Assembly (NCBI RefSeq): GCF_000186885.1
Contig: NC_014972.1
Location: forward strand, 2,430,001 to 2,462,000
Length of the DNA: 32,000 nt
Origin: Desulfobulbus propionicus DSM 2032
Lineage (GTDB): Bacteria > Desulfobacterota > Desulfobulbia > Desulfobulbales > Desulfobulbaceae
Direction: 5' to 3'
Positions 4,271 to 25,228 of this stretch are shown here, in pieces. Position 1 is the first letter of the stretch; the number at the start of each line of letters is the position of its first letter. The translations under genes were made by a program, and so were the position numbers. Below the pieces are notes generated by a model. It ran no database searches. It was not told the DNA's origin and saw nothing but the letters and a program-made list of their open reading frames with translations.

Positions 4271-4539
4271 GCTGCGGCAATGTCAGCCGCATGCGGAAGA
4301 CATCGTTGCCGCCGGTCCAGCACCCACCCGTCGGCTGTTCCCGGACCGTACTCGATCCCGTCCCTGTCGGCTCAACAACCGCCAGGAACGGGCCAATCGT
4401 TCTCCCTTCGCCCTGTATCCTTTTGTCCCAGCCCGGCTTTTTTCCTTTCTTGACAAGTTTCCCCCACAGGGATAAGGAAAAGGCCTTCTATCCGTTTTCC
4501 TCAATGCAATAATTTTCCCAGATGCCCCAGGAGCGCCGC

Positions 4540-4998
4540 ATGACAACGGAACAACCTGATTTGGAAAACATCCTTACCGCCTACGGCCGGGAACGGGACA
4601 ACCTCATCCCGCTGCTGCAGGAGGTACAGGACCGTTTTCGGTATCTTTCCCCAGAGGCGGTGCAGGCGGTGGCCGATCACCTCGAACTCTCGGCCAACGA
4701 CGTCTACGGCGTGGCCACCTTTTACGCTCAATTCCGTTTCGTGCCGCCCGGCCTGCACCACATCAAGGTGTGCGAGGGCACGGCCTGCCATGTGCGCGGC
4801 AGCGACCGCATTCTCGAATCCATCAGCCGCGCCACCGGCATCGCCCCTGGCCAGACCAGCAGCAATGGCCAGTTCAGCCTGGAACGGGTGGCCTGTTTCG
4901 GCTCCTGCGCCCTGGCCCCGGTGGTGGTGGTGGACGACAAGGTCTACGGTCGGATGACCGCCGCCAAAACCAACAAGCTCATTGAGGACAAGAAATGA
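4540..4998 (+). CDS. NuoE/HydC/HndA-like thioredoxin-fold [2Fe-2S] subunit
   Basis: CEGTAC (C-x4-C) and CFGSCALAP (C-x3-C) in the canonical order. Start at ATG 4540, preceded by AGGAG. ATGA overlap with the next gene at 4995-4998. Confidence 0.85.
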   Translation: MTTEQPDLENILTAYGRERDNLIPLLQEVQDRFRYLSPEAVQAVADHLELSANDVYGVATFYAQFRFVPPGLHHIKVCEGTACHVRGSDRILESISRATGIAPGQTSSNGQFSLERVACFGSCALAPVVVVDDKVYGRMTAAKTNKLIEDKK

Positions 4999-6848
4999 GT
5001 TTCGCCGCGCGACAACAACAGGCACAAATCGTCTGGCAACGTTTTGAGCAGCCGGACCGGCCCCGCATTCTCATCGGGTCGGCCACCTGCGGCCGCGCCG
5101 CCGGATCGCTGGAAGTCATGGCCGCCTTTGCCGCCGAACTGGCCAAACAGGGATTGACCGAATCCGTGGACGTGGTCGAGGTCGGCTGCCTGGGCATGTG
5201 CTATGCCGAGGTGCTGGTGGAGATCCGTGGCCGCGACGGCAAGCGGGTCCTGTACCAGAGTGTGGAGCCGCGCCATGTCGAGGCCTTGGTCGATGCCCAG
5301 CTGGTGCGGGGCGAGGTCTTTGCGCCGCTGGCCCTGGCGGTGATGAACGACACGGATGAAACCGTTCCTGCCTTCACCGACCTGCCGATGATCCAGCCCC
5401 AGGTGCGGATCGTGCTGCGCAACTGCGGCATCATCGACCCGACCAATATCGACCACTACCTGGCCCAGGGCGGCTACAGCGGCATGGCCCGCGCCTTTTC
5501 TCTGGGGCCGGAACAGGTGATCGAGGAGATGAAGGCGTCCGGCCTGCGCGGTCGCGGCGGGGCCGGTTTCCCCACCGGGGTCAAGTGGGGGTTTGCCCGC
5601 AGCTCGGTGGCGGATCAGAAATACGTGATCTGCAACGCCGACGAGGGCGATCCTGGTGCCTTCATGGACCGGTCGGTGCTGGAAGGCGACCCGCACGCGG
5701 TGCTGGAAGGGTTGCTGATCGCGGGCTATGCCATCGGCGCCACCGTGGGCTATGTCTACTGCCGGGCCGAATATCCGCTGGCCATCGAACGGTTGCAGGA
5801 CGCTATTGCCCAGATGCGCGAGCAGGGGTTCCTGGGCGCGAACATTCTCGGTTCGGGTTTTGATTTCGACATCAAGATCAAGAAGGGGGCCGGCGCCTTT
5901 GTCTGCGGCGAGGAGACCTCGCTGATGCAGTCCATCGAGGGCAAGCGCGGCATGCCGCTCTCCAAGCCGCCCTTTCCGGCGGTGTCCGGCCTGTTCGGCA
6001 AACCGACCAATATCAACAATGTCGAGACGCTGGCGGCGGTATCGGCGATCATGGAGAAGGGCGCGGCCTGGTATGCCGGGTTCGGCACCGAAAAGAGCCG
6101 GGGCACCAAGACCTTTGCCCTGGCCGGCAAGATCACCCGCACCGGCTTGATCGAGGTGCCCATGGGCATCCGCTTGCGCACCATCATCGACGAGGTCGGC
6201 GGCGGCGTGCTCGGCGGCAAGCCCTTCAAGGCGGTGCAGACCGGTGGGCCGTCGGGCGGCTGCATCCCGGCCCAGTTCATCGACCTGGAGGTCGATTACG
6301 AACACCTGGCTTCGGTCGGCTCGATCATGGGCTCGGGCGGCATGATCGTCATCGATGCGGAATCGTGCATGGTCGACATGGCCCGCTACTTCCTCACTTT
6401 CACCGAGAACGAGAGCTGCGGCAAGTGCGTGCCCTGCCGCATGGGCACCCAGCACTTGCTGCGCATTCTCACCGGCATCACCCAAGGCAAGGGGACGTTG
6501 GATCAGTTGGATACGCTGCGCAAGATCGGCGACACCATGAAGAGCGCCTCTCTGTGCGGCTTGGGGCAAACAGCGGCCAACCCGGTGCTGACCACGCTCC
6601 AGTATTTCGAGGAGGAGTACCGGGCCCACATCGAGGACCACAAGTGCCCGGCCGGTGCCTGCCGCGCCCTGATCCGCTTCGACATCGATCCGGCCCGTTG
6701 TACCGGCTGCGGCGCCTGTCTGCGCGCCTGTCCGGTGGCGGCGATCAGCGGCGAGAAGAAACAGCCGCACGCTATCGACCAGCAGCTGTGCATCCAGTGC
6801 GGTTCCTGCCGCCAGGCCTGCAAGTTCGAGGCGGTGCTGGTGGATTAA
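4995..6848 (+). CDS. NuoF/HydB/HndC-like FMN- and NADH-binding subunit with extra Fe-S domains
   Basis: GLRGRGGAGFPTGVKW, CNADEGDPGAFMDR and ESCGKCVPCRMG (N3-type 4Fe-4S). N-terminal thioredoxin-like domain (TCGRAAG...GCLGMCYAE). C-terminal 2x CxxCxxCxxxC(P) ferredoxin motifs. Confidence 0.9.
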   Translation: MSFAARQQQAQIVWQRFEQPDRPRILIGSATCGRAAGSLEVMAAFAAELAKQGLTESVDVVEVGCLGMCYAEVLVEIRGRDGKRVLYQSVEPRHVEALVDAQLVRGEVFAPLALAVMNDTDETVPAFTDLPMIQPQVRIVLRNCGIIDPTNIDHYLAQGGYSGMARAFSLGPEQVIEEMKASGLRGRGGAGFPTGVKWGFARSSVADQKYVICNADEGDPGAFMDRSVLEGDPHAVLEGLLIAGYAIGATVGYVYCRAEYPLAIERLQDAIAQMREQGFLGANILGSGFDFDIKIKKGAGAFVCGEETSLMQSIEGKRGMPLSKPPFPAVSGLFGKPTNINNVETLAAVSAIMEKGAAWYAGFGTEKSRGTKTFALAGKITRTGLIEVPMGIRLRTIIDEVGGGVLGGKPFKAVQTGGPSGGCIPAQFIDLEVDYEHLASVGSIMGSGGMIVIDAESCMVDMARYFLTFTENESCGKCVPCRMGTQHLLRILTGITQGKGTLDQLDTLRKIGDTMKSASLCGLGQTAANPVLTTLQYFEEEYRAHIEDHKCPAGACRALIRFDIDPARCTGCGACLRACPVAAISGEKKQPHAIDQQLCIQCGSCRQACKFEAVLVD

Positions 6849-6899
6849 CGGCCAGGCAAGCGGAGCATTGGAGCCAAGTTTTTTTCATAAGGAGAGTGC

Positions 6900-9404
6900 A
6901 TGGGCAGCATCAGTTTGACCATTGACGGCCGCATGGTCGAGGTCGAGAAAGGGACCACGGTCCTCCAGGCCGCCCGCCAGGCGGGCATCACCATCCCCAC
7001 CATCTGCGACCACAAGGACCTCAACCCTTACGGCGCCTGCCGGATGTGCATCGTCGAGATCGAGGGCGTGCGCGGGTATCCCACCTCCTGCACCACCCCG
7101 GCCACCCCGGGCATGCAGGTGACCACCCAATCGGAGCGGTTGACCGAACTTCGCAATCGCACCCTGGAGTTGATGTTTTCCGGCCATCCCAACAGCTGCC
7201 TGGTCTGTCCCCACCGCGAGGCCTGCGAGCAGTACCGGCCCAAGGCCACCAAGGCAGCCCGCTCCACCCGCTGCGGTTTCTGCGCCAACCGCGACGAATG
7301 CGACCTGCGCGCCATGGCCCTGCGGGCGGGCAGCCGGGAGTTACACCTGCCCACCCTCTATGCGTCCTACAACCTGGAGCGGGACGACCCCTTCATGGAC
7401 CGGGACTACAACCTGTGCGTGCTCTGCGGCCGTTGCTGGCGCATCTGCGAGAAGATCCATGGCCAGCCCGCCATCTCGATCATCAACCGGGGCAAGTGGG
7501 CCCGCATCGGCACCGCCTTTGACACCAGCCACGTCCACTCCGGTTGCACCTTCTGCGGCGCCTGTATCGACATCTGTCCCACCGGCACCCTCACCGACCG
7601 CTTCGCCCGCTGGCACGGCAAGCCCGAGCTGGAAATGCCCTCGACCTGTCTGCTCTGTAGCGAAGGCTGTTCGGTGGTGGCGCAGAGCAAGGAAGGACAA
7701 CTGCTGGCCTACACCATGACCGGATTCAACCGCGAATCCGGCCTCTGTGCCCTGGGGCGCTTCGGCGCGGCCCAGATCGTCAACTCCAACCAGCGACTGA
7801 TTCGGCCCCTGGTGCGGGAGGGCGAGGACCTGATCCCCTATGATTGGGAAGGGGCCATCCAGGCCGCGGCCGACGGCTTGCGCGGCTGCGTGGGGACGAC
7901 TGCGCTGGTGATCAGCGCCACCACCTCGCGCGAGGACCGGTTCCTCTATGCCCAGCTGGCCAGCCATCTGCAGGCTCCGCTGGTGCTCCTCGACGCTGCC
8001 GCCGATGGCGAGGATCCGGCTGTCCAACAGATCGCCCAGGACTTGAAGAACGGCACCCTGCGGGCCATCATCACCAACGGCAACCTCCTGCCCCTGGAGG
8101 CCATCCGGGCCGCTGGCTTTTCGCTGGTGATCGACTGTCTGCCCTCGCCGCTGTCCGAGGCGGCCAGCGTGGTCCTGCCGGCGGCGGTACTCAGCGAGAT
8201 TGAAGGCACCTTCCGCACTGCCGGCGGCGCCATCAAGACCATGGCCGCCTCCAGCCAGGCGCCGGGCCATGCCCTGCCGGAGCGGCAGATTCTCTGTTCG
8301 CTCGGTCAGGCCCTGGGCAGTGGCGAGTTCGATTTCGCCAGTGCCGCCAACGTCACGCCGCTGATCGTCGACGACCCGGCGCCACCGCAGGTCAAAGGCC
8401 ATCCCCGCGATCAGGTCCGCGACCTGCTGCCCCGCTTCCGTGGTCATCTGCTCGCCGACATTGTCCCGGCCCTGGCCGCCTTCGGCCTGCCCGCCACCCC
8501 TGCCGTACCGACCTTGGAGGTGTGCCCAGCCGGAGGTTTCGCCCTGCTGGAGAAACGGGAAATCGTGCCCAATATGCATTTCTTCAAGATCCGGGCGCCC
8601 CAGGTGGCCAAGTTCGCCCTGCCCGGCCAGTTCGTTATCCTCATGGCCAAGGAGACCTCGGAGCGTTCGCCCTTTACCCTGGTGGATTGGGACGCGAGTG
8701 AGGGTTGGATCTCGCTGGTGATTGAGGAGGTCGGCCGTTCCAGCCGTGAACTGGCCTCGCTCAAGGCCGGCGACTGTATCGCCCATGTCAGCGGCCCGCT
8801 GGGGCTGCCGTTGCCCATTGAGAACAAGGGCACGGTGCTGCTTGGCGGTGGCTGCTACGGCATCGGCGCCATCTTCCCCCTGGCCCGGGCCCTGCGTCAG
8901 GCCGGCAACCGGGTGATCTGCGCCATCGAGGCCTCCTCTTCCTATCTGCTCTACCGCCAGGAGGAGCTGCGCACGGTCTGCGACGAGTTGCTCCTGGCCA
9001 CCAAGGACGGCAGCGAAGGTGTGCAGGGTGGCGTTCAGGAGCTGTTGGCCCAGGCGGTCGCGCGCGAGCCGATCAATCAGTTCATCGCCATCGGCTGCAC
9101 CTTCATGATGCGCATGGTCACCGAGATCAGCCGGTCGCTCAATATCCCCACCCTGGTGGCGCTCAACCCGATCATGGTCGACGGCACCGGCATGTGCGGC
9201 GCCTGTCGCGTTTCCGTGGGCGAGAAAACACAGTTTGCCTGCGTGGATGGTCCGATCTTTGATGGCCACAGCGTGGACTGGGATGAGCTGGCCTCGCGGC
9301 GCAGCGCCTATGCCCGCCAGGAGGTGCAGGCCCTGTCGCAGAGTGTGGATCTGAACGCGCTGGTGCTGCCGTCCCAGGGCGGTGGCTGCGGCTGCGGCCG
9401 ATAA
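6900..9404 (+). CDS. Fusion protein: NuoG/HydA-N-like Fe-S module + short molybdopterin-oxidoreductase-like remnant + NfnA (NfnS)-like FAD/NAD(P) reductase domain
   Basis: N-terminal 2Fe-2S (CDHKDLNPYGACRMC). HPNSCLVCPHREAC (H-x3-C-x2-C-x5-C). Two ferredoxin-type clusters (CVLCGRCWRIC, CTFCGACIDICP). MopB-type CLLCSEGC...C. From ~nt 8535 (aa ~545): FFKIRAP...PGQFVIL...RSPFTL...GGGCYGIGAIFP...NPIMVDGTGMCGACRVSVG..FACVDGPIFDG, colinear with NfnA/PyrK-type reductases. AAGGAG SD before ATG 6900. Confidence 0.85.
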   Translation: MGSISLTIDGRMVEVEKGTTVLQAARQAGITIPTICDHKDLNPYGACRMCIVEIEGVRGYPTSCTTPATPGMQVTTQSERLTELRNRTLELMFSGHPNSCLVCPHREACEQYRPKATKAARSTRCGFCANRDECDLRAMALRAGSRELHLPTLYASYNLERDDPFMDRDYNLCVLCGRCWRICEKIHGQPAISIINRGKWARIGTAFDTSHVHSGCTFCGACIDICPTGTLTDRFARWHGKPELEMPSTCLLCSEGCSVVAQSKEGQLLAYTMTGFNRESGLCALGRFGAAQIVNSNQRLIRPLVREGEDLIPYDWEGAIQAAADGLRGCVGTTALVISATTSREDRFLYAQLASHLQAPLVLLDAAADGEDPAVQQIAQDLKNGTLRAIITNGNLLPLEAIRAAGFSLVIDCLPSPLSEAASVVLPAAVLSEIEGTFRTAGGAIKTMAASSQAPGHALPERQILCSLGQALGSGEFDFASAANVTPLIVDDPAPPQVKGHPRDQVRDLLPRFRGHLLADIVPALAAFGLPATPAVPTLEVCPAGGFALLEKREIVPNMHFFKIRAPQVAKFALPGQFVILMAKETSERSPFTLVDWDASEGWISLVIEEVGRSSRELASLKAGDCIAHVSGPLGLPLPIENKGTVLLGGGCYGIGAIFPLARALRQAGNRVICAIEASSSYLLYRQEELRTVCDELLLATKDGSEGVQGGVQELLAQAVAREPINQFIAIGCTFMMRMVTEISRSLNIPTLVALNPIMVDGTGMCGACRVSVGEKTQFACVDGPIFDGHSVDWDELASRRSAYARQEVQALSQSVDLNALVLPSQGGGCGCGR

Positions 9405-9441
9405 TTCGAGTGAATCGAGTGATTTTGCGGAGTATGCAAGC

Positions 9442-10890
9442 ATGACAACCAACGAACCCATGGCCGAGCAAGCAGCAACCCCCAAGAAAGGCAAGGCAAA
9501 GACCCCGCGCCAACCCATGCCCGAGCAGGACCCTCGCCGTCGCCGCTACAACTTCGAGGAGGTGCCCCGCGGCTACAGCGAGGAAACCGCCATGCTCGAG
9601 GCCTCGCGCTGCATCCAGTGCAAGAAGCCAGGCTGCGTCGAAGGCTGTCCGGTCAACATCCACATCCCGGCCTTCATTAAGCTGATTGCCGAAGGAAAAT
9701 TCATCGACGCCCTGCTCAAACTGAAAGAACAGACGGCCCTACCGGCGGTCTGCGGCCGGGTCTGCCCGCAGGAAAGCCAGTGCGAGGCGCGCTGCATCCT
9801 GGGCAAGAAGGGTGAGCCGGTGGCCATCGGCCGCCTGGAACGGTTTGCCGCCGATTACGCCCGCAAGCACGGCGGCGTGCCGGAGCCGGTCAAGGCCGCA
9901 GCCACGGGCAAACGGGTGGCGATTGTCGGCGCCGGGCCGGCCGGGATCACCGTGGCTGGCGAGCTGGCCCGCTGGGGCCACGAGGTGGTGATGTTCGAGG
10001 CCCTGCACCTGGCCGGCGGCGTGCTGATGTACGGCATTCCCCAGTTTCGTTTGCCCAAGGAGATCGTCCAGTTCGAGATCAACAGCCTCAAGCGGCTGGG
10101 CGTCACCATCCACACCGACTACGTGATCGGCAAGTCCGAGACCGTGGGCCAGTTGATGGAGCAGGGCTTTGACGCGGTGTTCATCGCCACCGGCGCCGGT
10201 CTGCCGGTGTTTCTTGGCATTCCCGGCGAGAATGCCATCGGCGTTTTCTCGGCCAACGAGTTTCTCACCCGCGCCAACCTAATGCGGGCCATCGATTTTC
10301 CCCGCTTTGCCACCTCGCCCATCCGCCCCCACCGAGCGGTGACCGTGGGCGGCGGCAACGTGGCCATGGACGCGGCCCGCACCGCCCTGCGGTTAGGTGC
10401 GGAATCGACCATCGTTTACCGCCGTTCCAAGGCGGAGATGCCGGCCCGCGCCGAAGAAGTCCATCATGCCGAGGAGGAGGGCGTGGTCTTCCACCTGCTC
10501 ACCAATCCGGTACGGATCGTCACCGATGCGCGCAACCGGGTGACCGGCGTCGAATGTCTGCGCATGGAACTGGGCGAACCCGATGCCTCGGGCCGGCGGC
10601 GACCGGTGGCGGTCAAGGGCAGTGAATTCATTGTCCCGGCCGACACGGTGATCGTGGCCATCGGCAACCAGCCCAATCCCCTGGTGCCGCAGACCGCGCC
10701 CGAAATCGAGACCTCCAAGCGGGGCACCATCACCGCCGATCCAGTCACCATGATGACCTCCAAGCCCGGCGTCTTTGCCGGCGGCGACATCGTCTCCGGC
10801 GCGGCCACGGTGATCAGCGCCATGGGCCAGGGCAAGACCGCGGCCCTGCACATCCATCGCTACCTCATGGGCGGCGACCCGCCCCGATGA
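9442..10890 (+). CDS. nfnB: NfnB / GltD-like NAD(P)H-dependent oxidoreductase (two [4Fe-4S] + FAD)
   Basis: RCIQCKKPGCVEGCPV...CGRVCPQESQCEARC followed by VAIVGAGPAGITVAGELA, GGVLMYGIPQFRLPK and FAGGD. Start set at ATG 9442, downstream of the preceding stop at 9404; the ORF-track start at 9382 overlaps that gene. Confidence 0.9.
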   Translation: MTTNEPMAEQAATPKKGKAKTPRQPMPEQDPRRRRYNFEEVPRGYSEETAMLEASRCIQCKKPGCVEGCPVNIHIPAFIKLIAEGKFIDALLKLKEQTALPAVCGRVCPQESQCEARCILGKKGEPVAIGRLERFAADYARKHGGVPEPVKAAATGKRVAIVGAGPAGITVAGELARWGHEVVMFEALHLAGGVLMYGIPQFRLPKEIVQFEINSLKRLGVTIHTDYVIGKSETVGQLMEQGFDAVFIATGAGLPVFLGIPGENAIGVFSANEFLTRANLMRAIDFPRFATSPIRPHRAVTVGGGNVAMDAARTALRLGAESTIVYRRSKAEMPARAEEVHHAEEEGVVFHLLTNPVRIVTDARNRVTGVECLRMELGEPDASGRRRPVAVKGSEFIVPADTVIVAIGNQPNPLVPQTAPEIETSKRGTITADPVTMMTSKPGVFAGGDIVSGAATVISAMGQGKTAALHIHRYLMGGDPPR

Positions 10891-10898
10891 ACGGGCAT

Positions 10899-10925
10899 GG
10901 GCGGCATCCAACCAGGCTGCCGCCC
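10899..10925 (+). terminator. Candidate terminator hairpin after nfnB-like gene
   Basis: GGGCGGCA-tccaaccaggc-TGCCGCCC (8-bp perfect stem) begins 9 nt after the stop. The downstream tract GTCGTCCTCTTGTTCG is only moderately T-rich. Confidence 0.35.
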
Positions 10926-10967
10926 GTCGTCCTCTTGTTCGCCCTTCCCTGTAGCAAACCGAAAACG

Positions 10968-10996
10968 TTGACATTGTCAGCGTGGTTGCGTACATT
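10968..10996 (+). promoter_or_regulatory. Candidate sigma70-type promoter for the macro-domain operon
   Basis: TTGACA, a 17-nt spacer, then TACATT. It would give a ~175-nt leader before ATG 11181. Confidence 0.5.
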
Positions 10997-11180
10997 CCGC
11001 TTGTATTCCTGAACAGCGGCCGATCCCATCGCTCCCTGTCGGTGCATTGCACTGTTCACCTTCCGCGTTCGTGTCCGTATGCTCCGACACAGCCGCAACG
11101 ATCGCCCAGCAATCCGCTACCCTGCCGGTGCGCCCGACCAACACCGAGGTTGCCCGAACACTGTCCACAAGGAGATTGCG

Positions 11181-11690
11181 ATGATCCATCTGGTTGAAGC
11201 CGACATCACCACCCTGAAAGTCGATGCCATCGTCAATGCCGCCAACGAAACCCTGCTCGGCGGAGGAGGAGTCGACGGCGCCATCCACCGGGCCGCCGGA
11301 CCGCAACTGCTGGAAGAGTGCCGCGCCATCGGCGGCTGCAAGACCGGCCAGGCGGTGATCACCAAGGGCTACGATCTGCCGGCCAAGCACGTGATTCACA
11401 CCGTGGGGCCGATCTGGCGGGGCGGCAACAACAACGAACCGGCCCTGCTGGCGAGCTGTTACCGCAACTGCCTGGAACTGGCCGTACGGAACAACATCGA
11501 CTCGATCGCCTTTCCAGCCATCAGTTGCGGCGCCTACGGTTTCCCGTTGGATGAGGCGGCCGACATCGCCGTGGACACCATTCAGTCGTTCCTCAACCGC
11601 AACGGCAAGCCGACAGAAGTCTATATCGTCTGCTTCCAGCCCAGGGCAAAATTTGCCTTTGCCGCCGCCATCCGAGGGCTGGAGGAATGA
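11181..11690 (+). CDS. Macro-domain protein (YmdB/O-acetyl-ADP-ribose deacetylase-like)
   Basis: [29 protein letters not shown]...HTVGPIW...[14 protein letters not shown] are canonical macro-domain motifs. AAGGAG lies 6 nt before ATG 11181. Confidence 0.9.
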
Positions 11691-12151
11691 ATTTTTCGTC
11701 CCCCGCGAGCACCGCCGCCATGCCCACGCCGTTTTCCCGCGATCTGTTCACCTACGGCTCGCTGATGTGCGAGGAGATCATGGCCGAGGTGGCCGGTTCT
11801 CGCTTGCCGTCCACCCCGGCAACCCTTGCCGGGTACCGCCGGTTTCTGGTCCAGGATGAGCAATATCCCGGGGTGGTCGTGGACCCGGCCGGGGTGGTGG
11901 CGGGGATGGTCTATCACACCATTTCTCCGGACAACTGGAAGCGGTTGGATCGCTTCGAAGGCGAGATGTACGACCGCCGACCCGTCACCGTGCGGTATGC
12001 GGACGGATGCGAAGCGGTGGTCGACTGTTATCTGTTCCGTCCTGAATTCGCCCACCGGCTGACCGCGACCGAGTGGGATTTCGCCGCCTTCCTCCACGAC
12101 GGCAAGCAGCAGTTTCACCAGCAGTATCGCGGTTTCAAGGCGATTGACTGA
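11687..12151 (+). CDS. Gamma-glutamylcyclotransferase-family protein (GGACT/AIG2-like)
   Basis: LFTYGSLM...LAGYRRF...YPGVV...GMVY...[16 protein letters not shown] matches the AIG2/GGACT pattern (YGSL plus the catalytic-Glu region). ATGA overlap with the macro gene at 11687-11690. Confidence 0.8.
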
Positions 12152-12212
12152 GTTCCCGGCCGTACAAGGCCGTTGCCGGATCGCCCAACCTCCCTCCAGG
12201 CAAGGAGTTGCC

Positions 12213-13907
12213 ATGCGCATAGGAATCGATATCGGTGGCACCCACACCGATGGCGTGCTCATCGACGGCTGCCGGCTGATCGCCGCGGCCAAGGCCCCCA
12301 CCAACCACGACAATCTGCTCGCATCGATCACCCAGGTCCTGCACACGGTCCTTGCCGGCCAGGACCCCGCCCGGGTACGAACCCTCAACTTGAGCACCAC
12401 CTTGACCACCAATGCCATCGTCACCGGCAAGACCGATCCGGTGGGCATGCTGGTGGTCGGTGGCCCGGGAATCGCGGCCAAGCATTACCGCATCGGCGAT
12501 CATTACCACCAGATCTACGGCAGCCTCGACCATCTGGGCACCGAGACATCAAGCCTGGATGAACAGGATCTGGACGAAGCGATCACCGCCTGCCGCGATC
12601 AGGGGGTGAAGTGCTTTGGGGTGGCCTGTAAATTCTCGCCGCGCAATCCGGCCTTTGAAAACCGCATCCGCGAGGAACTGGGCGATCAGGCCGACTTCAT
12701 CACCCTCGGCCATCTGGTTTCGGGCCAGCTCAACTTCGGCCGCCGCATCCACACCGTGTACTACAACTCGGCGGTGTGGCGCACCTTCCGCAGCTTTGCC
12801 GGCGCCCTCAATGCCAGCCTCAAGGGCTTTGCCCTCGACGCCGAGGTCAACATCCTCAAGGCCGATGGCGGCACCATGCCGATCGCCCGCGCTTTGGACG
12901 CGCCGGTGCAGTCGATCTTTTCCGGGCCGGCCGCCTCGGTGATGGGTATCCTGGCCACCTGCCCGGCAACCGAAGATTTGTTGATGCTCGATATCGGCGG
13001 TACCACCTCGGACATCGCCTTGTTTGCCGGTGGCGAACCGCTGCTGGAGCGGGAAGGCATCGCCATCGAGGACCGGCCCACCCTGGTGCGGGCCATTCAT
13101 GTGGAATCGATCGGCATCGGCGGCGATTCGCTGATCCGGGTGGTCGATGGGGTGGTCACAACTGGGCCGGATCGGCTCGGTCCCTGCATGGCCGCCGGCG
13201 GGTCGGCACCCAGCCTGATGGACGCGCTCAACGTCCTCGAACTGGCGGCCTTTGGCGAGGTGGAACGCTCCCGCGAGGGGATACACGCCCTGGCATCGGC
13301 CCATCAACTGGACAGCACTGCCCTGGCCGAGCAGGCGGTGGACGCGGCATTGGCCACCATCGGCGCCAAAATCGACACCCTGGTGCGCATGGTCAATACC
13401 AAGCCGGTTTACACCATCCACGAAATTCTCGAGGATCGGGAGATCAAGCCGCGCAAGCTGATCGTCATCGGCGGACCGGCCGCGGTATTCCAGGAACTGC
13501 TCGCCAAGCGACTGGGCATGGCCGTTGAGGTTCCGCCCCTGCACGGCGTGGCCAACGCGGTCGGCGCGGCCCTGACCCGCACCACCAGCCACCTGGCCCT
13601 GACCGCCAACACCGCCCGCGGGCAGCTGTCGGTGCCGATGCTCGGCATCTTCCGTACCGTCGCTCGCGGTTACAGTCTTCAAGAGGCCACCAGCGAGGCC
13701 AAGAGCCTGTTGCGTGCCGATCTGGACAAGGCGGGCGTGTCCCTGGCCGACGATGACATTCAGATCACCCAGGCGGATGCCTTCAACATGGTGGAAGGCT
13801 CGTACACCGCCGGAAAAAACATCCGGGTAGTGGCCCAGGTGCGGCCCGCGGTGGTGGCCCGGTTGGCCGGCGATTCTGTTCCCGTCCGCCTTGCCGGCCA
13901 GCCCTGA
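12213..13907 (+). CDS. Hydantoinase A / oxoprolinase-family (ASKHA-fold) ATPase, no HyuB partner in window
   Basis: MRIGIDIGGTHTDGVLI, ILKADGGTMP, FSGPAASVMG and LMLDIGGTTSDIAL. AAGGAG before ATG 12213. Confidence 0.8.
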   Translation: MRIGIDIGGTHTDGVLIDGCRLIAAAKAPTNHDNLLASITQVLHTVLAGQDPARVRTLNLSTTLTTNAIVTGKTDPVGMLVVGGPGIAAKHYRIGDHYHQIYGSLDHLGTETSSLDEQDLDEAITACRDQGVKCFGVACKFSPRNPAFENRIREELGDQADFITLGHLVSGQLNFGRRIHTVYYNSAVWRTFRSFAGALNASLKGFALDAEVNILKADGGTMPIARALDAPVQSIFSGPAASVMGILATCPATEDLLMLDIGGTTSDIALFAGGEPLLEREGIAIEDRPTLVRAIHVESIGIGGDSLIRVVDGVVTTGPDRLGPCMAAGGSAPSLMDALNVLELAAFGEVERSREGIHALASAHQLDSTALAEQAVDAALATIGAKIDTLVRMVNTKPVYTIHEILEDREIKPRKLIVIGGPAAVFQELLAKRLGMAVEVPPLHGVANAVGAALTRTTSHLALTANTARGQLSVPMLGIFRTVARGYSLQEATSEAKSLLRADLDKAGVSLADDDIQITQADAFNMVEGSYTAGKNIRVVAQVRPAVVARLAGDSVPVRLAGQP

Positions 13908-13956
13908 CAGCCGCCATGCCCTTCTCTCCGCAACCTTCAGCCCCACAGGTCACCTC

Positions 13957-15273
13957 ATGCTGAAAGCCACCTCATCGCTCGGCGTCATCTTTTTCCCCGC
14001 CTTTGACTGGGCCATCTCCCCCACCCATCCCGAACGGGAGGAGCGCCTCCTCTACACCCAGGACCAGTTCCGTGAGGAAGGCCTCTTTGATATCGAGGGC
14101 ATCGACGAATATCGTCCCCTCTATGCCACCGACCAGGACATCATGCGCGCCCACTTCTGCTTCCCCTCGGTGGAGGCGGTGTGTACCGAGTCGCACCGCA
14201 TCTCCGCCGGCGGCGCCATTCAAGCCGCCCGCCTGGTGCTTGAGGGAGAAACGCGGCGCGCCTTTGCCCTGGTCCGTCCCCCCGGCCACCACGCCATGAA
14301 GGTGGTGCACGGCAACCGGGGGTTCTGCAACATCAACATCGAGGCAGTGATGGTCGAATGGATCCGCGAGCACTACGGCCGCAAACGAATCGCCATCGTC
14401 GACACCGACTGTCACCACGGTGATGGCACCCAGGACGTCTACTGGCACGATCCGGACGTGCTCTTCATTTCCCTGCATCAGGACGGCCGCACCCTCTATC
14501 CTGGCTCCGGTTTCCCCCACGAGAACGGCGGCCCGCGCGCCCTGGGCAAGACGATCAACATCCCCCTGCCGCCGCGCACCTCGGATGCCGGCTACCTCCA
14601 TGCCATCGAAAACGTGGTCCTGCCGATCCTGGCCGATTTCAAGCCCGACTTGGTGATCAACTCCGCCGGCCAGGACAACCACTACTCGGATCCGATCACC
14701 AACATGCAGTTCTCGGCCCAGGGCTATGCCCGGCTCAACGAGCTGCTCAAGCCCGACATCGCCGTGCTCGAAGGCGGCTACTCGATCAAGGGTGCCCTGC
14801 CCTACGTCAACCTTGGCATCTGCCTGGCCATGGCCGGCTGTGACTACTCGGCAGTGCGCGAACCGGATTACAACGCGGCCGCCCTGCGGGAAGATCCGGA
14901 CACCATGGAGTACATCAAAAACAGCTGTCCCCATCTGTTGGACGGCTATTTTCATCCGGCCGAAGGCGATTTCGATAAGCAGGGCGCGTACTTCATCCGT
15001 GAACGCAAAATCTATTACGACACAGACGGCATTCTCGAAAAACAGCGCGAGGAACTCAAAGACTGCGATCACTGCCGGGGCCTGCGGCTGATCAAGACCA
15101 GCTCCAGCCATCTGCTGCCCTGCCTGGGCGTGGAGCTGCCCATCGACTGCTGCCCGGCCTGCGAGCGCGAGGGGTACGAGGCCTTCGAGAAGAGCAGCAC
15201 GAAGGACTATCTGGTGACCCAGCTGCTCGACCAGAAAAACAAGCAGTTCCGCTACCGATCCAGCGGGGACTGA
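13957..15273 (+). CDS. Histone-deacetylase-family (HDAC/APAH/AcuC-like) Zn-dependent deacetylase with C-terminal Cys4 extension
   Basis: RPPGHHA, DTDCHHGDGTQ and EGGYS are HDAC catalytic motifs. The C-terminal ~110 aa carries CDHC...(x23)...CCPAC. Start at ATG 13957 chosen because 13891 overlaps the previous gene; the SD is weak. Confidence 0.88.
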   Translation: MLKATSSLGVIFFPAFDWAISPTHPEREERLLYTQDQFREEGLFDIEGIDEYRPLYATDQDIMRAHFCFPSVEAVCTESHRISAGGAIQAARLVLEGETRRAFALVRPPGHHAMKVVHGNRGFCNINIEAVMVEWIREHYGRKRIAIVDTDCHHGDGTQDVYWHDPDVLFISLHQDGRTLYPGSGFPHENGGPRALGKTINIPLPPRTSDAGYLHAIENVVLPILADFKPDLVINSAGQDNHYSDPITNMQFSAQGYARLNELLKPDIAVLEGGYSIKGALPYVNLGICLAMAGCDYSAVREPDYNAAALREDPDTMEYIKNSCPHLLDGYFHPAEGDFDKQGAYFIRERKIYYDTDGILEKQREELKDCDHCRGLRLIKTSSSHLLPCLGVELPIDCCPACEREGYEAFEKSSTKDYLVTQLLDQKNKQFRYRSSGD

Positions 15274-15278
15274 ACGGA

Positions 15279-15812
15279 ATGCCGCAGGGCACGGACACGG
15301 ACACGGATATTCCCATGGCTGACTCCCTGCTGCGCCGCTTTTTCCTGCCCAAGCCCAACCGGTTTTTTCTCCTCCGTCTGTCGGCGGTCGCCCTGGCGAC
15401 CGTGCTCTTTTTTACCCAGGTGCTGATCCCCCTGCGGATCGAGGGTTACAGCATGGAACCCACCTACCGCAACGGGACCTTCAACCTCTGCTGGCGCTGG
15501 CGCTACCTGCTGAGCGAGCCCCGGCACGGTGATGTGGTGGTGATCCGCTTCGCCGGCCGTCGGGTGATGCTGCTCAAACGGGTGGTGGCCCTGGCCGGCG
15601 ATTCCGTGGCCTTCCGTGAGGGCGTGCTGCTGATCAATGGCCAGCCGGTGACCGAACCCTACGTGCGCATGCGGTCGAACTGGAACCTGGAACCGCGCAC
15701 CGTGGCAGCGGGCAAGGTCTACGTGGTGGGCGACAATCGCGGCGTGCCCATCGAGCGGCACCATTTTGGCCAAGTGGACCAGGAACGGATCATGGGAGGT
15801 GTGCTGTGGTGA
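15279..15812 (+). CDS. S26-family signal peptidase I-like protein (short form)
   Basis: GYSMEPT (Ser box), LLKRVVALAGD (Lys box) and VVGDNRG, with one N-terminal TM helix. The start may be ATG 15279 or ATG 15315. Confidence 0.8.
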   Translation: MPQGTDTDTDIPMADSLLRRFFLPKPNRFFLLRLSAVALATVLFFTQVLIPLRIEGYSMEPTYRNGTFNLCWRWRYLLSEPRHGDVVVIRFAGRRVMLLKRVVALAGDSVAFREGVLLINGQPVTEPYVRMRSNWNLEPRTVAAGKVYVVGDNRGVPIERHHFGQVDQERIMGGVLW

Positions 15813-16303
15813 ACAAAAAAACCATTGTTCTTGGCCTGTTGCTCGTTGTCGCGGCCGTTGTGCTTGTTGTTCGTCTCTGGCCAAGCGACGAGCGGGCCAT
15901 CCGCAAGCAACTGGCCCTGATCGAGGAGGCCGGCTCCAAGGAGGCCTCGGAACAGCCGCTGGAATCCCTGCTCAAGGCCAAACAGCTGGCCGCGCTTTTT
16001 CACGATCCCTGCGAACTGATTGTCGAGGCGGTCACGTATCACGGCCTGTATTCACGCAAGGAGATCATGGATCGCATCAACTTGGTGCGCGCCAATTACC
16101 GGACGGCGCGGGTCAGCCTGCACGACGTGACCATCGCGATTCCCGGGGACAACAACGCGGTGGTCAACTGCACCATACGTCTAAGCGGCGAGGGCAAGGG
16201 GCAGCCGGTGGCCGATGTCCAGGAACTGCGCGCCGAGCTGCGCAAGATCGAAGGCGACTGGCTGTTGACCCACGTCACCCTGATCGAGGTGCTGGAACGG
16301 TAG
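15806..16303 (+). CDS. Membrane-anchored hypothetical protein, possibly NTF2/SnoaL-like fold
   Basis: GTG start overlaps the S26 stop (15810-15812). N-terminal anchor IVLGLLLVVAAVVLVV. The remaining ~140 aa has a pattern reminiscent of DUF4440/NTF2-like proteins, but there is no motif-level proof. Confidence 0.5.
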   Translation: MVNKKTIVLGLLLVVAAVVLVVRLWPSDERAIRKQLALIEEAGSKEASEQPLESLLKAKQLAALFHDPCELIVEAVTYHGLYSRKEIMDRINLVRANYRTARVSLHDVTIAIPGDNNAVVNCTIRLSGEGKGQPVADVQELRAELRKIEGDWLLTHVTLIEVLER

Positions 16304-21704: not shown

Positions 21705-21765
21705 TCAGCTAGACCTGTATAGCTGCCGCAAACAGATCGTGCAAGGCTTTTCTTACGATCCTTTT

Positions 21766-21788
21766 TCGCGAGCATGGCTCGCTCCTAC
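21766..21788 (-). repeat. REP-like palindromic element, copy A
   Basis: Minus-strand read GTAGGAGCGAGCCATGCTCGCGA, with an internal 6-bp stem GCGAGC/GCTCGC. Confidence 0.6.
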
Positions 21789-21814
21789 CCAGCATGGACA
21801 AAATTCCTGGGAGT

Positions 21815-21837
21815 GTAGGAGCAGGCCATGCCTGCGA
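21815..21837 (+). repeat. REP-like palindromic element, copy B (inverted relative to copy A)
   Basis: GTAGGAGCAGGCCATGCCTGCGA. 19 of 23 positions are identical to copy A. The 4 differences form two compensatory pairs that preserve the stem (GCAGGC/GCCTGC). Confidence 0.6.
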
Positions 21838-21871
21838 TATGAATCTGGAGAGCATCCCACCATCGCCAGGT

Positions 21872-22146
21872 TCAGCCCTCCAGGGAGGCGATAAAATCGG
21901 CCGCATCATCAAGCAGCGCCGCGAACACCATTTCCAGGGCGCTGTCGAACAACTGCTGATCATGCGCTTCGCTGAGACTGTTGCCTCGATGGCCAGCGAA
22001 CCGTGGATGGTGCGGATGCGGTTGATGCGTCGCAGCGTTCTGGCCTGGTCGGCAAGCATGGTCAACCGTCCAATGGCTTCGCTGATCGCGGCGACCCGGT
22101 TCAAAATCTCCGGGGTGATGGTGTAGGGCGGCTGGTAGTCAGTCAT
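21872..22146 (-). pseudogene. Fic-family protein, N-terminal fragment only (frameshifted and truncated)
   Basis: MTDYQPPYTITPEILNRVAAISEAIGRL...LRRINRIRTIHGSLAIE matches Fic N-terminal regions. The expected continuation GNSLSEA is in another frame. No HxFx(D/E)GNGR Fic motif follows. Confidence 0.55.
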
Positions 22147-23178
22147 TGCCCCCTCCAGTTCGCGCTCGATCTGCTCGATGGTCGGTAGGCTGGTCTGTAA
22201 AGGTTCGGGTAGCGATTCCAGCAGCTTGTATTCGGCGATCCCCATGGGCTGGGTCTTGTCGCCCAAGGCATATTCGGCCACTACCTTGTTCTTGCTCTTG
22301 CACAGCAGCAGGCCGATGCTGGGGTTATCCTGTTCGGCCTTCACTTGACGGTCCACAGCGGTGAGATAGAAACCCAACTGCCCAAGATGTTCCGGTTTGA
22401 ACTTGTCTGCTTTGAGTTCAATCACCACATAGCAGCGCAGTTTGAGGTGGTAAAAGAGCAGGTCGATGAAAAAATCATCGCCACCGACTTCCAGATGCAC
22501 TTGCCGCCCGACAAGGGCAAATCCCGCACCCAGTTCCAGCAAGAATTGGGTGATGTGCCTGACCAGTGCCGATTCAATTGCGCGCTCGTCCGGCCTCTTT
22601 GCCCACATCGAGAAAATCGAACAGGTAGGGGTCTTTGAGCGATTCCCGAGCCAGATCACTGCCCCGTGCGGGCAACCGTTCGGCGAAGTTGGTCACGGCC
22701 TTGCCGGTGCGTTCGAGCAGTCGGGTTTCGATGTGAATATTCAGCACATTGCGACCAGCTTGTGTTCAATGGCGGCCCGGGCATAGGCAAGGCGTTGTTC
22801 CGGTTGCTTCAGCCGGGTCAGCAGCACCAGGTTATGCCCCCAGGGTAATTGTCCAACAGCCTGTTGGACAATTTGCTCTTCCGGCCAGGCCTCGGTAAAG
22901 GCACGCATATACATGAGCTTAGCACGGGAAAAGCCTTTCATGTCGGGAAAGGCGGTGCGCAGATCATGGGCCAGCCGGTCAATGACCTTGGCGCCCCAGC
23001 CCTGCTCGGCTTGCCGGATCAGAATATCACGGCCGATCTGCCAGTAAAGCGTTACCAGTTCGCGGTTGACCGCCAGAGTTGCCCGTTGCTGGGCGGTATG
23101 GATGCGGTTTTTCAGTTCCGCCAGCCAGTTGGCGTAGCCTTCAGGTGGGTGGATCAGGGAGACGGGCTTGTCGTTCAT
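22147..23178 (-). pseudogene. DUF1016 (YhcG-like PD-(D/E)XK nuclease) gene disrupted by frameshifts
   Basis: The N-terminal 145 aa (22741-23178) and the C-terminal nuclease core (ERAIESALV...GFALVGRQVHLEVGGDDFFIDLLFYH..LRCYVVIELK) lie in different frames. The connecting segment (NVLNIHIETRLLERTGKAVTNF...DPYLFDFLDVGKEA) is in a third frame. Shifts are near 22745 and 22590. Confidence 0.7.
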
Positions 23179-24643: not shown

Positions 24644-25228
24644 TCACCGACCGTTCGGAGCACCTTGTTCTTCTGTGAACAACCGATAGGTCCGGTGGCC
24701 ATCGTCGTCCCCGGTCCGGGCGGCAATCCACAACAGCACCACCATGACCACGCACCAGCTCACGCCAATCTGCACCAGACAACGGAGCATGTCCGGGCCG
24801 AACGCAGCCGCACCCAATCGTACCCCAGCCCCGTAGGCCAAGGCTCCGGATACACCACCAAGCACGGCAGCCAGCAGATACCGTCCGGCAAGCCAGGCCA
24901 GCGCATAGTGCAGCGTCATGGCGAACTGCAGCCACAGCACCAGGATCCAGGGCGGCGGCACGGCCGGATGCAGGCTGCCGATGGGAAAGAACAGCACGCC
25001 GGTGCCGATATGAAGGCTATCAACCAGCAGGCCGAGCAGCCCGCTTGCACCCAGCAGCAGCGCTTCGCGGCCGGGTTGCCGAACCAGGGCCAGATGCGCC
25101 AGCACCAAGGCACTTCCGGCCAGGGTGGCTGGCCAGGGAAAGCCGGCGGCGGCACCCAGGACGCACACCATCCAGCCGCCCTGGAACAGAGCGAAGTTGA
25201 TCAGCTTGGTCCAGGCCTGGCCGCTCAC
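24644..25228 (-). CDS. DUF2878-like integral membrane protein
   Basis: About 5 TM helices. N-terminus KLINFALFQGGWMVCVLG resembles DUF2878 proteins, which co-occur with CFA-synthase-like genes. GTG start at 25228 forms a GTGA overlap with the upstream stop. Confidence 0.6.
   Translation of the reverse strand: MSGQAWTKLINFALFQGGWMVCVLGAAAGFPWPATLAGSALVLAHLALVRQPGREALLLGASGLLGLLVDSLHIGTGVLFFPIGSLHPAVPPPWILVLWLQFAMTLHYALAWLAGRYLLAAVLGGVSGALAYGAGVRLGAAAFGPDMLRCLVQIGVSWCVVMVVLLWIAARTGDDDGHRTYRLFTEEQGAPNGR

Follow-up and report, generated by a model that had tools for sequence, protein, structure and literature searches.

A HyuA-like ATPase gene and an HDAC-like zinc hydrolase gene form a linked two-gene cassette within a putative composite operon of Desulfobulbus propionicus

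In enzymes of the HyuA/HyuB type, the substrate is phosphorylated in its lactim form by an ASKHA ATPase subunit at the expense of ATP, and HyuB opens the ring at an Asp-His-Asp-His zinc site that is reached via a tunnel; ATP is needed because the equilibrium of the hydrolysis is unfavourable (PMC8453981). In the AcuABC system of Bacilli, the HDAC-like protein AcuC works with the nucleotide-sensing protein AcuB (PMC13121692). We describe here a locus of Desulfobulbus propionicus DSM 2032 in which a gene for a HyuA-like ATPase is directly followed by a gene for an HDAC-like zinc enzyme; both belong to a cluster of six genes in a stretch of 32,000 nucleotides (nt) of contig NC_014972.1 (positions 2,430,001 to 2,462,000), called the window below and numbered from its first letter. 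To our knowledge, HyuA-type ATPases are known only with HyuB-type partners, and we know of no HDAC-fold enzyme that has an ATPase subunit, this fold being among the most studied of hydrolases. Full-text literature searches that combined hydantoinase with histone deacetylase, AcuC, EpmA or tengcongensis returned no description of a HyuA-like/HDAC-like pairing, and hydantoinases as partners are absent from a 2024 survey of bacterial classical deacylases. An earlier note on this DNA had not recognised the combination of genes as a described pathway or defence system. The object of interest is smaller and more widespread than the six-gene cluster: it is an undescribed HyuA-like/HDAC-like cassette.

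The HyuA-like/HDAC-like pair, with products of about 560 and 437 aa, is a strictly linked two-gene cassette in several phyla of anaerobes. Linkage was followed in two sets of loci, 79 from genomes with the HyuA-like protein as anchor and 80 from metagenomes with the HDAC-like protein as anchor (designated L and a number where they need to be told apart); cultured organisms were looked up individually, and all window proteins were mapped onto the fetched loci by tblastn. The HDAC-like gene comes after the HyuA-like gene in each of the 47 genome loci that have room downstream, and the HyuA-like gene lies directly upstream in 58 of the 65 HDAC-anchored metagenome loci that have room upstream. In 20 of 107 loci the stop codon of the first gene overlaps the start codon of the second, and the gap between the two is mostly below 60 nt. 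The best named homologues of the window proteins are from Desulfobulbus. Carriers of the pair include Desulfobulbales, Desulfocapsaceae, Desulfobacterales, Syntrophobacterales, Desulfobacula, Desulforhabdus, a Desulfovibrionaceae metagenome-assembled genome (MAG), Spirochaetota, Leptospirales, Caldanaerobacter subterraneus, Candidatus Vecturithrix and an Acholeplasmataceae MAG; all named carriers are anaerobes or come from anoxic habitats. No fusion of the two core proteins was found among 360 listed homologues.

The genes that flank the pair are wholly different between lineages, for example between Caldanaerobacter, Ca. Vecturithrix, Desulfobacula and Desulforhabdus. The mixed flanks seen in Spirochaetota, Caldanaerobacter, Vecturithrix and others (Fe-ADH, polysaccharide deacetylase with NeuB, GDSL lipase, GGDEF, sensor kinases and CMD among them) speak against a conserved third partner outside Desulfobulbales. 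The only recurrent neighbours there are EpmA and, within one sublineage, RlmN-HisI-HisG. At a single Spirochaetes MAG locus (L052, 6634-12437), same-strand genes for a NeuB-family sugar synthase, a 192-amino-acid (aa) protein and a polysaccharide-deacetylase-like protein precede the pair, the last overlapping the HyuA start; this one case hints at amino-sugar chemistry.

The product of the first core gene carries the DIGGTHTD (residues 6-13) and DIGGTT (residues 260-265) motifs, which are invariant family-wide; DxGGTxTD and DxGGT are the phosphate-binding motifs of HyuA subunits (PMC8453981). The protein falls about 130 aa short of the canonical HyuA length and is 17-21% identical to the solved subunits, and its homologues are 36-82% identical to the window copy. 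Its AlphaFold2 (AF2) model has a predicted local distance difference test (pLDDT) score of 90.7. In Foldseek searches, the only high-coverage matches of this model were HyuA-type catalytic subunits, namely N-methylhydantoinase, the beta subunit of acetone carboxylase, the alpha and gamma subunits of acetophenone carboxylase, and the caprolactamase CapA; the probability was 1.00 with 9h03, 5svc_B, 5l9w_b and 6yra_A. Weak matches were to MutL (PF13941) and to acyl-CoA dehydratase activators. As the earlier note had said, the usual HyuB partner is absent: no HyuB gene was found in the window, and a location elsewhere in it is ruled out by the annotation of every sizeable open reading frame (ORF). 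HyuB was likewise not found among the called or annotated neighbours of the pair in the related loci whose neighbours were examined, although a HyuB gene may lie elsewhere in the genome. Neither the cluster nor the window encodes Pxp-type domains, and of the parts of an oxoprolinase only the HyuA-like half is present.

By sequence and structure, the product of the second core gene belongs to the HDAC fold family, in which it represents a distinct subfamily. All catalytic residues are present (H111, H112, D149, D151, H153, D240 and Y275); the motifs RPPGHHA, DTDCHHGDG, SAGQD and EGGY align to the second catalytic domain of HDAC6 (HDAC6 CD2) and are invariant in 37 homologues, including the His-His dyad, the Asp-His-Asp zinc ligands and the catalytic Tyr. 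The start MLKATSS agrees with the N-termini of the homologues, and identity across phyla is 55-93% over nearly the whole length. With the AF2 model (pLDDT 88.5), the top Foldseek matches were Kdac1, HDAH, PA3774 and PrpH at about 30% identity, with target-normalised TM-scores of 0.71-0.81 against 8szu, 1zz0 and 5g0x.

Two further segments set this protein apart. Its C-terminal domain contains four invariant cysteines, C370, C373, C399 and C402 (about nt 15064-15162). A search for this domain in a library of 1.8 billion representative proteins returned only 96 matches, nearly all of them short sequences resembling fragments of the same HDAC-like family, which speaks against its occurrence in other architectures; judged from these sequences, the predicted zinc ribbon is specific to the family. 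Near the N-terminus, residues 15-24 (DWAISPTHPE; nt 13999-14028) are invariant across phyla and are the sole part of the AF2 monomer with pLDDT below 50. A segment that is invariant yet poorly modelled is what would be expected if it became ordered against a partner, and these residues are therefore a candidate partner- or substrate-binding element.

The cluster around the pair consists of six ORFs packed tightly at 11181-16303, all on the + strand (Table 1). Its junctions are an ATGA overlap (11687-11690), gaps of 61, 49 and 5 nt, and a GTG...TGA overlap (15806-15812); the ORF coordinates bear out the earlier description of six same-strand genes with two overlaps and gaps of 5-61 nt. Five of the six family assignments pass the curated Pfam and NCBIfam cut-offs, and these assignments of the earlier note are upheld. 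The sixth, NTF2-like, is weak, with scores below the cut-offs for DUF4440 (22.8 bits against 25.2) and SnoaL_4 (17.3 against 24) and a best Protein Data Bank match at E = 0.04. The long ORF of the macro-domain gene opens at 11079; the likely start is the ATG at 11181, 6-7 nt past AGGAG. The translation of the GGACT-fold gene shows FTYGSLM (YGSL) and DRFEGEMY (EG(E)), aligned to the AIG2-like structure 2jqv, and we take the Glu of the second motif to be catalytic, as in the family at large; the nearest solved structures are the plant AIG2-like proteins 2jqv and 2g0q. The S26 protein has both residues of the catalytic dyad in its translation, Ser in GYSMEPT and Lys in LLKRVV.

Table 1. Coordinates of the features described, in window positions unless a locus is named
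Feature	Position	Strand	Evidence or remark
Sigma-70-like promoter candidate, TTGACA-17 nt-TACATT	10968-10996	+	10/12 matches; inside the 290-nt gap 5' of the first gene
Conserved leader block, TTGCACTnTTCaCCTaCCGC ... TATGCTaCAAT	11046-11091	+	Alignments with L004, L009, L036 and L084
Macro-domain protein, 169 aa, YmdB-type O-acetyl-ADP-ribose deacetylase	11181-11690	+	PF01661, E = 2e-51; NF001664, 229.7 bits (cut-off 200)
GGACT/AIG2-like protein of gamma-glutamyl-cyclotransferase fold, 154 aa	11687-12151	+	PF06094, E = 9e-20, 71.9 bits (cut-off 22.8)
HyuA-like ASKHA ATPase, 564 aa	12213-13907	+	Hydant_A_N PF05378, 2e-29; Hydantoinase_A PF01968, 9e-37
HDAC-fold zinc amidohydrolase, 438 aa, class IIb/HDAH-like	13957-15273	+	Hist_deacetyl PF00850, E = 3e-65, 220.9 bits (cut-off 27.9)
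C-terminal beta-rich domain of the HDAC-like protein, predicted CxxC...CxxC zinc ribbon	14959-15273	+	Invariant cysteines; predicted secondary structure
S26 signal peptidase I-like protein, 177 aa, N-terminal transmembrane segment	15279-15812	+	Peptidase_S26; TIGR02227, 92.8 bits (cut-off 47)
Weakly NTF2-like protein (DUF4440/SnoaL), 165 aa, N-terminal membrane anchor	15806-16303	+	Start overlaps the end of the S26 gene
Loci with the pair and EpmA	L164 7001-10914; L150 8279-12222; L160 8276-12247; about 20 more	Same strand	

Neighbourhood conservation, which the earlier note had proposed as a check, separates the core from the rest of the cluster. The pair is linked across phyla, and GGACT and macro genes recur within Desulfobulbales. 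Besides the window, two loci of close Desulfobulbus relatives, L001 and L084, are the sole ones in which all six genes stand in this order, and L006 and L048 come near to it. Of the 36 Desulfobulbales loci whose upstream sequence was long enough, 13 combine macro with GGACT, 13 contain GGACT without macro, 7 contain macro without GGACT and 3 contain neither gene. GGACT is thus immediately upstream of the pair in 26 of these loci, across two families, and macro in 20, all in the Desulfobulbus-type part of the clade. Outside Desulfobulbales, neither gene was found beside the pair in the approximately 100 loci examined. The S26 gene is found 3' of the pair only in L001, L006, L048 and L084, and the NTF2-like gene only in these four and in L024, which lacks S26. 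The macro, GGACT, S26 and NTF2-like genes are lineage-specific additions around a two-gene core, the last two being recent ones. As the accessory genes are lineage-specific and the pair is conserved, the cluster is a Desulfobulbus-lineage composite operon, made of an ancient, conserved two-gene core with layered recent additions. The recurrence of GGACT and macro genes 5' of the pair within Desulfobulbales makes a local functional link of GGACT to the pair plausible.

The ATPase half of a HyuA/HyuB enzyme is thus kept and joined genetically to another zinc amidohydrolase, and replacement of HyuB is the most economical reading. We tentatively infer that the pair is a two-subunit ATP-dependent amidohydrolase or lactamase in which the HDAC-fold enzyme takes the place of the HyuB zinc subunit, a reading that we regard as possible rather than probable. 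The two proteins would form one complex that works as HyuA/HyuB enzymes do. The ASKHA subunit would spend ATP to activate, probably by phosphorylation, an amide or lactam that is hard to hydrolyse, and the HDAC-fold zinc subunit, as a non-orthologous replacement of HyuB, would then cleave the activated compound. The high conservation of the HDAC-like protein and its invariant N-terminus, modelled with low confidence, would fit a partner interface. GGACT-fold enzymes act on gamma-glutamyl amines, from which they liberate 5-oxoproline. A GGACT/AIG2-like cyclotransferase appears to have been recruited just 5' of the pair in Desulfobulbales, and because of this position 5-oxoproline or a related lactam is proposed as the local substrate: in the simplest pathway, a gamma-glutamyl-amine would yield the amine and 5-oxoproline (or a related lactam), and the pair would open the ring at the expense of ATP. 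This specific step is more doubtful than the general scheme. The macro, S26 and NTF2-like proteins would be later additions, co-transcribed and placed outside the conserved machine.

Several observations weigh against a HyuB replacement or against its extension to 5-oxoproline. A monophyletic subclade of HDAC-like proteins (L110, 7416-11761; L111; L113, from a human gut metagenome; L115; L139; L146) has no adjacent HyuA-like gene; it keeps the zinc ribbon, and its genes follow the housekeeping genes kdsB-carA or HD-tmk. A seventh exception, L103, stands elsewhere in the tree, beside genes with no assigned function. The HDAC-like deacetylase can evidently exist without a neighbouring ATPase gene. 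In L083 (4443-9311, on a 6.5-Mb contig), genes for an APH-type kinase and an alpha/beta-hydrolase separate the two core genes. A complex of the two proteins and a channel between their active sites are both hypothetical, and HDAC-fold enzymes hydrolyse ordinary amides without ATP, so that the role of the ATPase may be a different one. GGACT is absent from every locus outside Desulfobulbales, and 5-oxoproline can therefore not be taken as the general substrate; moreover, the GGACT protein is nearest to plant AIG2-like proteins that have no assigned substrate. In Desulfobacterales the linked gene is EpmA, which points to lysine or elongation factor P (EF-P) chemistry.

EpmA, also called GenX, is the ligase that attaches (R)-beta-lysine to Lys34 of EF-P. 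Clustering of neighbours revealed, in 24 loci, a same-strand gene for a class II aminoacyl-tRNA-synthetase-like protein of about 305 aa located 3' of the HDAC-like gene, immediately so in 23 and after one intervening gene in the other; both copies that were scanned pass the EpmA model TIGR00462 (318 and 304 bits, cut-off 287). The junction is often a 4-nt overlap, as in L150, or a 3-nt gap, as in Desulfobacula phenolica, where HyuA, HDAC and EpmA follow each other in this order. This arrangement suggests a role of the pair in the EF-P modification machinery, in which an N-epsilon-acylated lysine, for instance Lys34 of EF-P, would be the substrate of the HDAC-like enzyme and the HyuA-like protein would be its energy-coupling partner. 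The HDAC-like enzyme might strip an acyl group that is wrong or protective, take part in maturing or recycling the beta-lysyl group, or act on a free lysine or beta-lysine derivative that EpmA uses or that is made by it. HDAC-fold enzymes are classically N-epsilon-acyl-lysine hydrolases, and the very high conservation of this one would suit a conserved macromolecular substrate. The EpmA loci form a deep, Desulfobacterales-type clade of the HDAC tree, with EpmA proteins only 48-58% identical to the reference copy. In another clade, L129 (381-7617) carries epmB-like (a KamA radical SAM protein), efp and epmA genes, convergent with the pair and starting 1.6 kb from it, an association with EF-P genes that is independent of the deep clade. 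The other recurrent neighbours are also translation-related: RlmN, as RlmN-HisI-HisG in place of EpmA in a nested sublineage that includes Desulforhabdus, and QueA, shortly 3' of the pair in three loci and about 8 kb away in a fourth. However, efp, epmA and epmB are absent from the 32-kb window and from the vicinity of the pair in Desulfobulbales, Spirochaetota, Caldanaerobacter and Vecturithrix; the EpmA linkage amounts essentially to one ancient event plus L129; unrelated housekeeping genes do share compact operons; and such enzymes do not figure in a 2026 review of EF-P modification. On balance we find a role in EF-P modification unlikely. We give no better chance to a bolder form of the ATP-dependent hydrolase proposal, in which the pair would be a new class of ATP-driven amidohydrolase and a core housekeeping enzyme of many anaerobes that, in Desulfobacterales, acts with EpmA on the beta-lysyl-lysine of EF-P or on lysine-derived precursors or by-products. 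The HDAC-like protein could also be a conventional deacetylase of acetyl-lysine or acetyl-polyamines, with the HyuA-like protein as an ATP-dependent regulator, an energy-charge sensor or a reactivase of its metal or cofactor, by analogy with AcuB and AcuC or with ASKHA reactivases of the MutL/EutA type. The fully canonical catalytic machinery agrees with this, as do the nearest structures, which are bacterial lysine and small-molecule deacylases, the weak matches of the ATPase to MutL and dehydratase activators, and the subclade that has no adjacent HyuA gene; the anaerobic or anoxic character of all named carriers would suit an oxygen-sensitive metal centre in need of upkeep. Nevertheless, the ATPase matches catalytic HyuA-type subunits best, in structure as in sequence, and not reactivases, and the linkage is much tighter and the conservation much higher than is usual for a regulator, which leaves a regulatory ATPase improbable in our estimation.

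The remaining alternatives treat the six genes as a unit. The earlier note had suggested a multi-specificity eraser or salvage module for modified lysines or polyamines, which would remove ADP-ribosyl groups or O-acetyl-ADP-ribose, gamma-glutamyl and acetyl groups, and recycle 5-oxoproline. The six genes are indeed packed tightly behind one promoter candidate, most of the 36 Desulfobulbales loci have macro, GGACT or both with the pair, and the chemistry is coherent: a YmdB-type macro protein clears what sirtuin deacetylation leaves as by-product, and N-acyl amines are substrates of both the GGACT and the HDAC families. Yet the complete arrangement is limited to three loci, macro and GGACT are present or absent independently of each other and both are missing from all loci outside Desulfobulbales, S26 and NTF2-like are envelope proteins confined to the nearest relatives, and in L006 an 800-aa ORF lies between the macro gene and the others. 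Only two of the genes travel together, so that an integrated six-enzyme module, whether for salvage or against toxins, fails the test of neighbourhood conservation, and we think there is little chance that the six genes make up one such module. Anti-phage defence, or a counter-measure to ADP-ribosylating or acylating toxins, is very improbable. Macro domains do reverse toxin ADP-ribosylation in some systems, and a scan of the six proteins with PADLOC-DB 2.0 gave one match, a marginal one to 2TM (E = 4e-4) over the transmembrane segment of the last protein; the other five proteins had none, and a defence system was rejected on this result, which leaves the counter-toxin suggestion of the earlier note unsupported. 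Furthermore, the core pair lies among housekeeping genes (EpmA, RlmN, HisIG, QueA and Pcm) and is vertically conserved within clades, the GC content of the cluster equals that of its flanks, and no mobile-element genes adjoin it.

The 5' region of the cluster contains two elements of note. A promoter-like element had been reported in front of the first gene; it is present at 10968-10996, and the scan that detects it is overall at chance (2 sites, against 1.1 +/- 1.2 expected). Its only added support is its partial conservation in two relatives, where alignment gives TTGACT...TACACT (L009) and TTGATC...TACAGT (L036). Between this candidate and the macro start, within the macro leader of about 185 nt, lies a conserved block that in relatives holds an extended -10-like sequence, TGCTACAAT, degraded to TGCTCCGAC in the window. 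This block could be an alternative promoter, an operator or a leader RNA. Rfam gave no match at the gathering threshold in the whole window and none at E <= 1 in 10850-11250, which speaks against a riboswitch or known RNA in the long leader or elsewhere in the window. Terminator-like matches are also at chance level (8, against 5.5 +/- 2.9 expected), and all four on the + strand fall within coding sequence. Both scans being at chance, they were not used to define the operon boundaries. A convergent transporter gene terminates 5 nt past the last gene of the cluster.

Other parts of the window are recorded here for completeness. Directly 5' of the cluster, at 4522-10890, four + strand genes encode a NuoE-like [2Fe-2S] protein, a NuoF-like FMN/Fe-S protein, an 834-aa Fe-S/FAD fusion and a GltD/NfnB-like protein, which together look like an electron-bifurcating NAD(P)H:ferredoxin oxidoreductase module; the genes for the last two are syntenic with the cluster in L001, L004 and L024 and lie downstream of the pair in L023. 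On the - strand, at 24644-29291, genes for DUF2878, a DUF1365-cyclopropane-fatty-acid-synthase fusion (659 aa) and a DUF1295-amine-oxidase fusion (696 aa) look like a lipid-modification cluster, in fused forms that are unusual for such clusters. The segment 21000-24000 has a GC content of 0.57-0.59, compared with about 0.63-0.68 in the flanking DNA, and contains a gene for a YhcG-type PDDEXK nuclease (21709-22659) as well as several small ORFs, so that an insert of foreign DNA is a possible reading.

In summary, two of the six genes constitute a conserved system, GGACT is a plausible local partner, and the rest is lineage-specific. If the HyuA/HDAC hybrid is real, oxoprolinase-style activation followed by hydrolysis has been re-created around another zinc hydrolase, and a function could be proposed for thousands of genes annotated 'hydantoinase/oxoprolinase family protein', 'histone deacetylase' or 'AcuC-like' in sulfate reducers, spirochaetes and thermophilic Firmicutes. 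EpmC is an oxygen-dependent hydroxylase, which anaerobes cannot use; the operon link to EpmA provides a concrete lead, open to testing, on how these organisms complete or police the modification of EF-P. Should the pair act on EF-P, it would add a new energy-dependent editing or maturation step to the modification of a universal translation factor.

The locus was compared with five described systems. As in AcuABC, whose HDAC-fold deacetylase gene lies beside a gene for an adenine-nucleotide-binding protein (PMC13121692), a deacetylase-like gene adjoins a gene for a putative nucleotide-binding protein. AcuB, however, belongs to the CBS/ACT-type sensors instead of the ASKHA ATPases, AcuC is class I-like and has no zinc ribbon, and the cluster described here has no acetyltransferase or AcsA context. 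The EF-P beta-lysylation system (EpmA, EpmB and EpmC) is connected to the pair by gene neighbourhood alone, EpmA being directly 3' in the large Desulfobacterales-type clade and epmB-like, efp and epmA genes being close by in L129; neither core protein is homologous to any Epm enzyme.

With the gamma-glutamyl cycle, in which GGCT or GGACT is followed by 5-oxoprolinase, the cluster shares a GGACT-fold gene directly 5' of an oxoprolinase-family ATPase gene in Desulfobulbales. It differs in that its GGACT is AIG2-like, its downstream enzyme has no HyuB and the link is limited to one order. The logic of this GGACT may resemble the BtrG-type removal of a gamma-glutamyl protecting group. Unlike the known 5-oxoprolinases (OplAH and PxpABC), the cluster has no HyuA-HyuB fusion or pair and no PxpA, PxpB or PxpC domains.

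The zinc deacylases of the HDAH/class IIb type (Bordetella/Alcaligenes HDAH, Pseudomonas aeruginosa PA3774, Acinetobacter baumannii Kdac1, PrpH, DmhA, the acetylpolyamine amidohydrolases and HDAC6 CD2) have the fold and the catalytic residues of the HDAC-like protein, at about 30% identity, whereas the latter has in addition a four-cysteine putative zinc ribbon, a genomic ATPase partner and a far higher conservation across phyla. Finally, the pair is outside the HyuA/HyuB family in the strict sense, since the defining HyuB was looked for at the loci and not found; the partner of its ATPase has an arginase/deacetylase fold, unrelated to Hydantoinase_B, and the ATPase differs from solved HyuA proteins by the length and identity given above. 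The HyuA/HyuB enzymes (5-oxoprolinase OplAH, caprolactamase CapAB, N-methylhydantoinase, and acetone and acetophenone carboxylases) nevertheless provide the best sequence and fold matches of this ATPase, and they share with the pair the ASKHA subunit domains and ATP-binding motifs, the arrangement as two adjacent genes, and a partner that is a metal-dependent hydrolase with Asp/His ligands.

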